NCBI RefSeq assembly: GCF_054482525.1
Contig: NZ_CM137006.1
DNA: 64,000 nucleotides
Direction: 5' to 3' (one strand)
A program made the position numbers. Below, piece by piece: positions 30,001-33,000 of the stretch (position 1 is the first letter of the stretch; each line of letters begins with the position of its first letter).

Positions 30001-33000
30001 TGAATGGTCAAACCGTAAGCCGTGATGGTGCGCGTAATCTCGGTGAAGTACGTACCGGAGTTGAGGCGAAAGTAAATCACAACCTTAGCCTGTGGGGGAA
30101 TGTCGGTGTGCAACTAGGTGATAAAGGCTATAGCGATACTCAGGGCATGCTGGGTGTGAAATATAGCTGGTAAACCGTATAAGCCGCATGTCGAAGATGC
30201 ATGCGGCTTAATATTGCCGACTTCAAACGACTTTTAAATCCTCCTTTTTATCCGCGATCGCGGATATCGCAGCGTTTATCCCGTAGAGCGGATAAGATGT
30301 GTTTCCAGATTGACTTTATCCTCACTAAAGGATAAAACTGATAATATCCCCTTGAGCGGATAAATTTGCTGTGGACGTATGACATGATGAGCTTTCAGAA
30401 GATCTATAGCCCAACGCAATTAGCGAATGCAATGAAACTGGTTCGTCAGCAAAATGGCTGGACGCAGAGCGAGCTGGCGAAAAAAATCGGCATTAAGCAG
30501 GCGACAATTTCCAATTTCGAAAACAACCCTGACAATACCACGCTGATGACATTTTTTAAGATTTTACAGTCGCTTGAACTCTCAATGACGCTATGCGACA
30601 CGAAAAATGCCTCGCCAGAATCAACAGAACAGCAAGATCTGGAGTGGTAATGCCTAAACTTGTCACTTGGATGAACAACCAGCGGGTAGGCGAGTTAACG
30701 AAGTTAGCCAATGGCGCGCACACCTTTAAGTATGCACCGGAGTGGTTAGCCAACCGTTATGCCAGACCGTTATCACTTTCGCTGCCATTGCAGAGGGGGA
30801 ATATCACCTCTGATGCCGTATTTAACTTCTTCGATAACCTGTTACCCGATAGCCCGATTGTACGTGACCGGATCGTTAAACGTTATCATGCTAAACGTTG
30901 TCCTCAATCAGATAGAGCATTTTATCGTATTGTACAGTCAGATTTTTTGATACCCGGCGAGGCTCTCGCCAGGTAAATTCTGCATCAAGGTCATCGTCTA
31001 ATGCCAGCGGCCGGTACGCGTTAAAATCATGCAAGGGTTCTTTGGCAAAGCGCCGGTTATAATCCGCCATGTATTCTTCTGCAAATGCATTGGCCGCTTC
31101 TATTGTACAGATCCCCTTAAGCCTGAGCTCCTTAACGAGTCGGTCCTGAAGTGTCAAATGAGCACGTTCAACGCGGCCTTTTGCCTGGCTGGTTTCAGCA
31201 CACAAAGGAGTAATATTAAGGCAGCGCATGGCCCTGGCAAACTGGGTATCGCCGAGACCGGTGGTGGCGTGCTTATTATTGACTCTGAATACGCTGGCTT
31301 TATCGCTGTAGAGGATCATCGGTCTACCGTATTCAGTGGTGGTCGCAGCCATCAATTTGTATCAGCTCGCCAGTACAAGGACGCCGGTAACGAGGCTGAT
31401 GAATTTTCGGTGCGCGTTGTCTGCGGGGGATCCAGAGTCCCGCGTTTATCATGAGACGTCGGATGGTTTCCTTTCCAAGGACCAGACCGTGAACTTCCTC
31501 CAGCTTTTCCCGCGCCAGCGTGGGGCCAAAATCACGGTAGTGCTCCCGGATTATACTGAGTGCCTCCAATGAGCCACAAATAGAACATTAGCATTGAGCC
31601 TCTATAATTTTGGTGCGCATAATGTGCTACACGTTATGTTGAAAAGGCCGCTGCGAAAATAGAACCCCGCAGCGGCCTCTTTAGCATAACGTCATTGTGC
31701 GAACCAATTATTTATTTTTTTGATTTTTGAGTTGCCTCAATTTCTTTTTTTAAACCATGAAGGTTTTTATGACCGGTTCCCTTTGGTTGTAACTGTCCCC
31801 TTTGTAACTTACTGATTCTATTTCCTCTTTCTGATATTACTATTTCATCATTCAGGGATTTTTCAATCAATGCATACAACGCATTGAATACTTTGATGTT
31901 TTCTGATTCCCTCAACTCTTCGAGGATTTTACTTAGTTGTAGAAAGTCATTAATTAAACTAACGCCATTTTTAGGATCGTAAAACTCCTCATGTCGTTTT
32001 AACATCTTTGCAATCTTTTTTTGCTTATCTGTTGCGTTTGACATTTTCCCTTTCCCTTCAACTAGATTTAATCATTACATTCAACCGTTGCTACGGTTCC
32101 ATAATAAGTAATGTAAAGAAAACTTCCATTATTGAACTGGCCAACAGAGGTCGATACTTTTACCCCGTAAATGACATTTCCTTGTCTACCTGCAGAATTC
32201 ACGAACGCATCATAGGCTTCCTGGTGCTCATTTCTCTTGCGCTCCATAAAACCACGAATTAAACCTTTATCAGAAATTTCAATAGGATAGGTCTTCTCAA
32301 TAAATCCATGAATCTCTACTACTTTCATATTGGAGGGCAATGTATCAGTGCTTAACACTAACATGTTGATTTCCTTTCAATTAAAGAACCTTAATGACAT
32401 TACTTAATTATTTCATTTCAATCAACAACATATGGGTTGTTTTTTATCATTCCGACACTATATCTAGGCGAGATAACTAAAATGGCTAGTTATCACTATA
32501 CCTCTAAAGGATAAAATAATGGCTGACTTCTACATAACAGCAGTAAAATATGATGAAAATCATGAACATATCGTTAAGGTTAAAACACGGCAACGAGTTG
32601 ATGGTAAGGTTAAAGCACCAAGCATCAATTCTCGCCAATTTATCGTCGAATTGATTAATACCGGAAAGGTATCATTTTGGACTGGATTACAGGATAGCGA
32701 AGGACGATGGGGAAAAGGGGCTGACGTGACCGTAACCTCTACTGGTTTCCTGACTACATCACCAAATAATACCACTCGGGATAACCTCGGCGAATTGCCT
32801 GAATTTTAACCAAAAATCAAACGTGCAGTGTAGGTAATACTGCACGTTTGTCTCATTCCTGAGACTCTACCTTTTACTGTTCATCGCCAGTGATTAATTT
32901 TCTGGTTAACATCTTTGCACTGTAGCTATATGAACTTAAAGCAGAAACCTGTCTTGCAAGTGATATGATATCTTGCTTGTCCAATGTCCTGATGTTCCAG

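Follow-up and report, generated by a model that had tools for sequence, protein, structure and literature searches.

The terminus region of Escherichia coli hosts a degenerate insertion sequence (IS), which is described here in a stretch of 64,000 nucleotides (the window) from contig NZ_CM137006.1 of NCBI RefSeq assembly GCF_054482525.1. The IS remnant is flanked on one side by hipA', a truncated toxin gene, and on the other by a site derived from dif, the dimer-resolution site of the chromosome and target of the XerC and XerD recombinases, at which an array of filamentous prophages begins (Table 1). In the sequence-only reading of this DNA the remnant had been regarded as a decayed DDE transposase relic, possibly unrelated to the phage. 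The remnant is very probably the positional fossil of a targeted insertion.

A transposase remnant next to hipA'

Two minus-strand open reading frames (ORFs) are present, 31333-31569 (ending in ...GELIQIDGCDHH and a stop codon) and 30891-31355, which includes the motifs LYSDKASVF and TSQAKGRVER. The NCBIfam ISNCY transposase model NF033594 was matched at model positions 62-138 (E 7e-27) and 178-331 (E 3e-60). The same DNA in the genome of PCN033 has been annotated by RefSeq as a frameshifted, doubly truncated 'ISNCY family transposase' pseudogene. A Pfam search of both fragments left the rve domain unmatched, and returned only weak helix-turn-helix (HTH) and chance matches. The copy residing on plasmid pECO-109b (NZ_CP026208.1, 244933-246636) was used as reference IS. 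This copy is intact, measures 1704 bp, has TGT...ACA ends and encodes a transposase of 466 amino acids (aa), WP_000996654.1, which scores 481.7 bits against NF033594 (cutoff 250), and has HTH Pfam matches plus a weak rve match over aa 143-217. Plasmid copies are approximately 98% identical to the remnant across the shared parts; segment 1 of the remnant matches the pECO-109b copy at 98.9% by blastn, and 96.6% by tblastn. Hundreds of E. coli plasmids host the ColV/ColBM copy, which is frameshifted by a deletion of 11 bp. A search for an intact element in the rest of the 64-kb window revealed the remnant only.

The remnant is indeed a decayed DDE transposase gene, as shown by the matches to NF033594 and by the alignment to the 466-aa relative, in which the three motifs previously noticed correspond to the true catalytic residues. 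The codons are 31353-31351 for D150 (IQIDGCDHH), 31304-31302 for D211 and 31169-31167 for E256. A glutamine is found seven residues downstream of the glutamate (Q263, codon 31148-31146, motif GRVERAHLTLQ). D150 and D211 are separated by 49 nt (about 16 codons) and lie in different frames in the remnant, and are 61 residues apart in intact proteins, very close to the 60 or so residues that had been anticipated. Both the short spacing and the use of two frames had been correctly perceived, and both are explained by a 134-bp deletion (134 = 2 mod 3), which takes out aa 156-200. A spacing of about 15 residues is not native to the element, since in intact relatives the two residues are about 60 residues apart. 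The 134-bp deletion spans the conserved 'DD' pair of the family, which is found in the motif VYVDDATS (D171-D172) of the intact relative and four homologues. A second deletion, of approximately 307 bp, left its scar at the inner border of the left terminal inverted repeat (IRL), and eliminated both start codon and HTH region (aa 1-78). The window also lacks positions 1-551 of the IS, which comprise the C-terminal third of the gene for the transposase, and the right terminal inverted repeat (IRR). With two internal deletions and a frameshift, and devoid of start codon, HTH region and IRR, the remnant is an inert copy, incapable of transposing or making transposase.

No terminal inverted repeats had been recognised in the sequence-only reading. 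The IRL is retained, so the element reaches 31606 (...GAGCCTCTATA), and not 31569. Read from the outside inward, the IRL sequence is TATAGAGGCTCAATGCTAATGTTCTATTTGTGGCTCATTGGA. It begins with TATAGAGGCTCAATGCTAATG..., the second residue G being replaced by A, has a C at position 9 (TATAGAGGC), and is followed by a subterminal repeat of the inner IR, GTGGCTCATTGG. The IS1202 family (formerly 'ISNCY, IS1202 group'), analyzed by Harmer, Pong and Hall in 2023 (PMC10132070) and by Siguier et al. in 2022 (bioRxiv 10.1101/2022.12.17.520857), includes a subgroup formed by ISAjo2, ISAba32, ISKpn21 and others. Published features of family or subgroup are a transposase joining an N-terminal HTH to a DDE catalytic domain, an extra pair of conserved aspartates that lies between the first two catalytic ones, IRs of ~24-26 bp with outer 5'-TGT...ACA-3' ends, a second internal copy of the inner IR, a Q (not K/R) at E+7 and an invariant C at IRL position 9 (PMC10132070; bioRxiv 10.1101/2022.12.17.520857). 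Q at E+7, C at IRL position 9 and the subterminal repeat of the inner IR were all found, as were the TGT...ACA ends in the reference copy. The reference transposase is 73% identical to a protein named ISKpn21 family by NCBI. On these sequence grounds, the element is assigned to the IS1202 family, and to the subgroup targeting XerC/XerD sites (xrs), ISKpn21 being the closest named relative.

Table 1. Features of the window around the remnant. Positions in the reference IS refer to the pECO-109b copy; L003 is E. coli sequence NZ_CM132638.1.
Feature	Position	Strand	Basis
Large ECSE_1600-type autotransporter gene, leftmost of the region, E. coli terminus-region DNA	ends at 30173		
hipB antitoxin gene, intact	30384-30650	+	position matches annotated hipB in PCN033; translation
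hipA', hipA toxin codons 1-82, only N-terminal 'Couple_hipA' domain	30650-30895	+	Pfam PF13657, E 2e-20
Deletion junction hipA'/IS	30895-30896	.	blastn, window versus L003
IS remnant segment 1, reference IS 552-989, transposase aa 201-346 (D211, E256, Q263)	30896-31333	-	
Scar of 134-bp internal deletion (reference IS 990-1123; aa 156-200)	31333-31334	.	multiple alignment with plasmid copies
IS remnant segment 2, reference IS 1124-1355, transposase aa 79-155	31334-31565	-	
IRL and subterminal repeat, reference IS 1663-1704	31565-31606	-	alignment to reference copy
5-bp spacer ATTTT, IS end to XerC arm	31607-31611	.	
dif-derived site: XerC arm GGTGCGCATAA (31612-31622), TGT/GCTACACG, phage XerD-type arm TTATGTTGAAA	31612-31644	+	
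Filamentous prophage array	from 31612 rightward		

Spacing to dif and recurrence at other XerC/XerD sites

According to the published rule, the IRL of xrs-targeting ISs, which is the end proximal to the transposase, keeps a fixed orientation and a distance of 5-6 bp relative to the XerC arm of XerC/XerD sites. Chromosomal dif is among the targets, and partial copies keep the IRL at equal distance; the spacer next to the IRL is the position of the target-site duplication (TSD) in this subgroup (PMC10132070; bioRxiv 10.1101/2022.12.17.520857). The window conforms to the rule both in spacing and in orientation, as the IS end is separated from the XerC arm by precisely 5 bp. IRL, 5 bp and XerC arm are found in the same arrangement at loci L001-L003, and phage-free relatives exhibit a complete canonical dif at the same distance from the IRL. 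Proximity to dif, tacitly taken as accidental in the sequence-only reading, is rather the canonical position and orientation of these elements.

The association is not peculiar to this locus. A set of 100,044 species-representative genomes was scanned with the terminal 19-mer of the IRL alone, a pattern including no dif sequence. Eleven loci were retrieved, one of which is a chance match and the other ten real IS ends. At nine of the ten, a XerC arm and a recognisable XerC/XerD site are found 5 bp beyond the IS end (4 bp in Providencia stuartii). These nine ends reside in Providencia (two), Serratia, Citrobacter (two), Erwinia, Xenorhabdus, Arsenophonus and a plasmid-like contig of a metagenome-assembled genome. 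The tenth adjoins what is apparently another IS end, and would correspond to a tandem insertion. Upstream of the IRL, an exact TSD of 5 bp with TGT next to it was sought in the 11 loci and found in none. The two E. coli plasmid copies analyzed, from pECO-109b (L005) and pAPEC-O1-ColBM (L006), similarly have an xrs 5 bp away. The spacers are ATCTT and ATGTT, and the XerC/XerD-type sites (L005 4689-4721, L006 4678-4710) differ, also in the central region; that of pECO-109b carries the same XerC arm found in the window, GGTGCGCATAA. No exact TSD was found for the plasmid copies either. On the IRR side L005 and L006 share the flank, a gene of the STM4504/CBY_0614 family. Different IRL sides associated with a common IRR flank would imply recombination within or beside the IS.

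Fossil copies like that of the window are found in other genera. In Arsenophonus nasoniae (L008), Xenorhabdus innexi (L012), Citrobacter sp. (L013) and Erwinia persicina (L014) the element has been reduced to IRL stubs of 32-54 bp, to a two-ended mini-element of ~190 bp, or to copies with multiple deletions, and the 5-bp distance to a XerC arm has been preserved in every case. The site adjoining the IS in Arsenophonus and Xenorhabdus resembles the phage hybrid site of the window in having an extended central region. Pairing at dif of an IS and an integrative mobile element exploiting Xer recombination (IMEX) thus seems to recur, judging from the sites of these two species.

Resemblance to known systems is of variable degree. 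ISKpn21, which has been placed in the ISAba32, or 3-6-bp-TSD, subgroup, encodes a transposase of 467 aa, close to the 466 aa of the reference IS, has the same TGT...ACA ends, and keeps its IRL at 5 bp from the XerC arm both at dif and at dif-like sites, including the chromosomal dif of Klebsiella and Serratia. However, ISKpn21 is 2278 bp long, hosts a passenger ORF and has IRs matching at 25/25 positions, whereas the reference copy measures 1704 bp, lacks a passenger ORF and has imperfect terminal repeats, and the window copy, non-functional, is a fragment that retains a single end. Elements of the ISAjo2/ISAba32 type, 'site hunters' of the pdif and dif sites of Acinetobacter, share the TnsB-like DDE transposase with Q at E+7 and the subterminal second copy of the inner IR, and their partial copies retain the IRL beside the site. 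In contrast, they measure 1.48 kb, their transposases (441-457 aa) are only distant relatives by sequence, and they have been found associated with dif modules of Acinetobacter rather than in E. coli; the published 44% identity to TnpAjo2 refers to the ISKpn21 transposase, and not to the window element. ISSen13 and ISLad2, also of the IS1202 family, reside in enterobacterial hosts and are inserted in plasmids on the C side of dif-like sites, but at 3 or 4 bp, rather than 5, and encode transposases of 456 and 448 aa.

The ancestral island, the hipA deletions and the prophage

A comparison with the same locus in related strains, as called for in the sequence-only reading, was made with PCN033, L003 and K-12. 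In K-12, dif comes straight after the hipA flank (...GGTTT ATATT GGTGCGCATAA...), and the pentamer in the spacer position is ATATT. Counts were made among 5426 complete E. coli genomes, approximately 230 of which share the relic. The largest group by far (216 genomes) is exemplified by L003, in which hipA is intact and an island of 2.76 kb, whose boundaries are exactly the native hipA flank and dif as defined by K-12, includes in order ATGTT, an IS1202-type end, a phage attachment remnant, a SIR2 gene, the IS remnant, ATTTT and dif. The IS1202-type end (L003 1950-1999) is 50 bp long, has the outer end toward hipA and is identical to the reference IRL at 39/50 positions. The presence of two bracketing ends of this type, inverted relative to each other, suggests that successive or composite insertions may have occurred at dif. 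Directly after the IS end, the region 2000-3424 of L003 includes the right half of a phage-type attachment site, 91% identical to window 31635-31711, and then a gene encoding a 450-aa SIR2 protein (PADLOC candidate PDC-S25, E 2e-82; Pfam SIR2_2). The SIR2 gene occupies the slot where present phages carry variable cargo genes. Attachment remnant and SIR2 gene probably survive from an earlier phage, integrated at dif and carrying a defence gene as moron.

Both internal deletions are already found in the IS remnant of the L003 island, which in addition misses the outer 18 bp of the IRR. Since L003-type genomes have an intact hipA and already carry the lesions, the IS was inactivated before hipA was lost; internal deletions and loss of the IRR tip are common to the ~230 genomes, and therefore correspond to one old event. 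The window derives from an L003-like arrangement by loss of 3205 bp (L003 796-4000). The deletion, found also in PCN033 and two other genomes (the junction occurs in 3 of the 5426), removed the rest of hipA, the second IS-type end, the phage attachment remnant, the SIR2 gene and IS positions 1-551, joining hipA codon 82 to IS position 552. The transposase C-terminus had been placed at the hipA junction. The junction falls indeed at 30895/30896, and the same deletion truncated hipA, with loss of the HipA kinase domain. hipA' is collinear with the intact hipA of L003 up to position 795, its reading frame continues into antisense IS sequence down to a stop at 30976, and the corresponding DNA in PCN033 is a PGAP-annotated pseudogene. 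In 11 genomes (the L002 type) an independent deletion has other endpoints, L003 656-3852. hipA has thus been truncated twice independently by deletions reaching into the dead IS (window 30650-30976; L002 4051-4156), each time leaving an orphan hipB and an N-terminal HipA stub, of 82 codons in the window and of 35 in the L002 type. At both hipA-IS junctions microhomology is limited to 0-1 bp, and no sign of IS- or repeat-mediated deletion was found. The possibility that the 3205-bp deletion was made by the transposase was considered and rejected, as the deletion ends within the IS, at position 552, and the copy is already dead where hipA remains.

The prophage array, found at 31612-64000, includes at least 3.7 tandem copies with a period of 8743 bp and 0 mismatches. 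The hybrid site GGTGCGCATAATGTGCTACACGTTATGTTGAAA opens each copy. Next come a stem-loop and an inverted dif-like sequence, which reads GGTTCGCACAATGACGTTATGCT on the minus strand; this organization resembles the folded attP of CTX-type phages. The dif-derived site at 31612-31644 is the left junction of the array, where XerC arm and TGT are kept, and phage sequence follows. A canonical E. coli dif (up to 3 mismatches allowed) is absent from the window, the sites present being phage hybrids. The 8743-bp units start from the XerC arm, and are free of IS homology. PCN033 carries an identical relic next to a canonical dif and has no prophage, and therefore the prophage arrived last; the arrangement hipA'-IS-dif is found also in two other genomes, likewise devoid of prophage. 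The idea that the remnant is unrelated to the phage was in part correct: the relic is older and is no part of it, yet IS and phage have both exploited the same dif site. IMEXs such as the CTX-type filamentous phages resemble the IS in that they exploit dif and layer up at the same locus, one of them directly to the right of the relic, but they do so by XerCD recombination within dif, whereas the IS uses a DDE transposase and inserts beside an intact site. Two small minus-strand ORFs of 110 and 98 aa (31712-32364 in the first copy) occupy the left end of every prophage copy, in the slot of other cargo in related phages; no PADLOC match was found for them.

Origin of the relic at dif

It is very probable that an IS1202-family element inserted in a targeted manner beside the chromosomal dif, and later underwent decay in place and deletion before the phage integrated. 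According to this scenario, an xrs-targeting IS would have transposed next to dif in an ancestral E. coli. To judge from the literature, the TnsB-like transposase may recognise dif when bound by XerC, or otherwise marked, and insert 5 bp away; targeting of XerC-bound dif is the mechanism proposed for these elements, and may hold for the present one. Transposition would probably have followed the copy-out-paste-in route reported for ISKpn21, with a circular intermediate. Decay involved the 134-bp deletion in the catalytic domain, the ~307-bp deletion of start codon and HTH region, and loss of the tip of the right end, though the order of these early steps is one that we infer. Subsequently, in the lineage of the window, an illegitimate deletion eliminated the HipA kinase domain, the candidate defence gene SIR2 and the right end of the IS. 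Finally, a filamentous phage entered the same dif by Xer recombination. Strand exchange inside the central region of dif left XerC arm, 5-bp spacer and IRL untouched.

Several observations do not fit smoothly with this scenario. A TSD is not demonstrable for the window copy, because the IRR and its flank have been deleted, and is not obvious for the intact copies of Serratia and Providencia (L011, L016). The pentamers flanking the whole ancestral island are only 4/5 identical (ATGTT versus ATTTT), and the left end of the island resembles a different IS-type end. The outermost triplet of the IRL is TAT instead of TGT, a change of one residue. IS name and subgroup placement depend on identity to proteins named by NCBI and on published descriptions. 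Direct insertion is indistinguishable from import by Xer recombination of a unit formed by IS and xrs; the pECO-109b copy adjoins the same XerC arm. The IS could have been sitting by a plasmid or phage xrs, and the unit could have reached dif through XerCD, carried by a replicon or an IMEX, the deletions occurring later. Plasmid copies ~98% identical to the remnant do adjoin xrs, the association of the same IRR flank with different spacers and sites in L005 and L006 shows that IS-xrs units are reshuffled, and the stretch of the L003 island that separates hipA from the IS includes a phage-type attachment remnant and a cargo-like SIR2 gene. This route is nonetheless unlikely. The spacer ATTTT matches neither plasmid spacer, and is one substitution away from the ATATT of K-12; the borders of the island coincide with native flank and dif, as predicted by insertion in situ, and direct insertion of relatives at chromosomal dif is documented. 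Whichever route was taken, direct transposition or import, the adjacency of IS and dif derives from xrs targeting.

The remaining explanations are less convincing, or more speculative. That the relic is an ordinary, untargeted IS lying near dif by coincidence could be argued from the mobile-element debris in which the E. coli terminus region is rich, and from the lack of a TSD. Such a coincidence is highly improbable, since the same 5-bp spacing and orientation recur outside E. coli at 9/10 independent IS ends, from other genera, and also next to two plasmid xrs; the recurrence fits the published behaviour of the family, and effectively refutes a chance association. The fragment abuts the left junction of the prophage, and could be viewed as part of it, either a phage-borne IS or an integrase remnant. 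This is scarcely credible, and a role of the IS as phage component was rejected, because phage-free genomes have the identical relic beside a canonical dif, and the repeated units of the array, starting at the XerC arm, contain no IS. A bolder idea would assign to IS1202-type ends the mobilisation, or capture, of a defence-gene cargo brought to dif by a composite element or 'transporter'. The IRL stubs, seen next to dif independently in E. coli, Xenorhabdus, Erwinia and Arsenophonus, would then persist not by chance, but because they still matter, for example as landing pads bound by transposase, or as modulators of Xer or IMEX activity. We regard it as unlikely.

The targeted insertion beside dif here favored is an additional example of a known family, and not a new principle or mechanism; the remnant is a genuine but ordinary relic. 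xrs targeting has been described in 2022-23, mainly in Acinetobacter, Klebsiella and Burkholderia (PMC10132070; bioRxiv 10.1101/2022.12.17.520857). The E. coli chromosomal case is not mentioned in the main texts and one supplement of these two papers, and a literature search on IS1202 family, E. coli and XerC found nothing specific. An apparently random pseudogene becomes a dated marker, telling that the chromosomal dif of E. coli has been struck by an xrs-targeting IS. The finding provides a rule useful for annotation, as an ISNCY pseudogene with an IRL 5 bp from GGTGCGCATAA can be catalogued as a dif hunter of the IS1202 family. It explains the truncated hipA and the orphan hipB of this lineage, and the relic preserves the order of the arrivals at dif: the IS, then the deletion of hipA and SIR2, and eventually the filamentous phage array.

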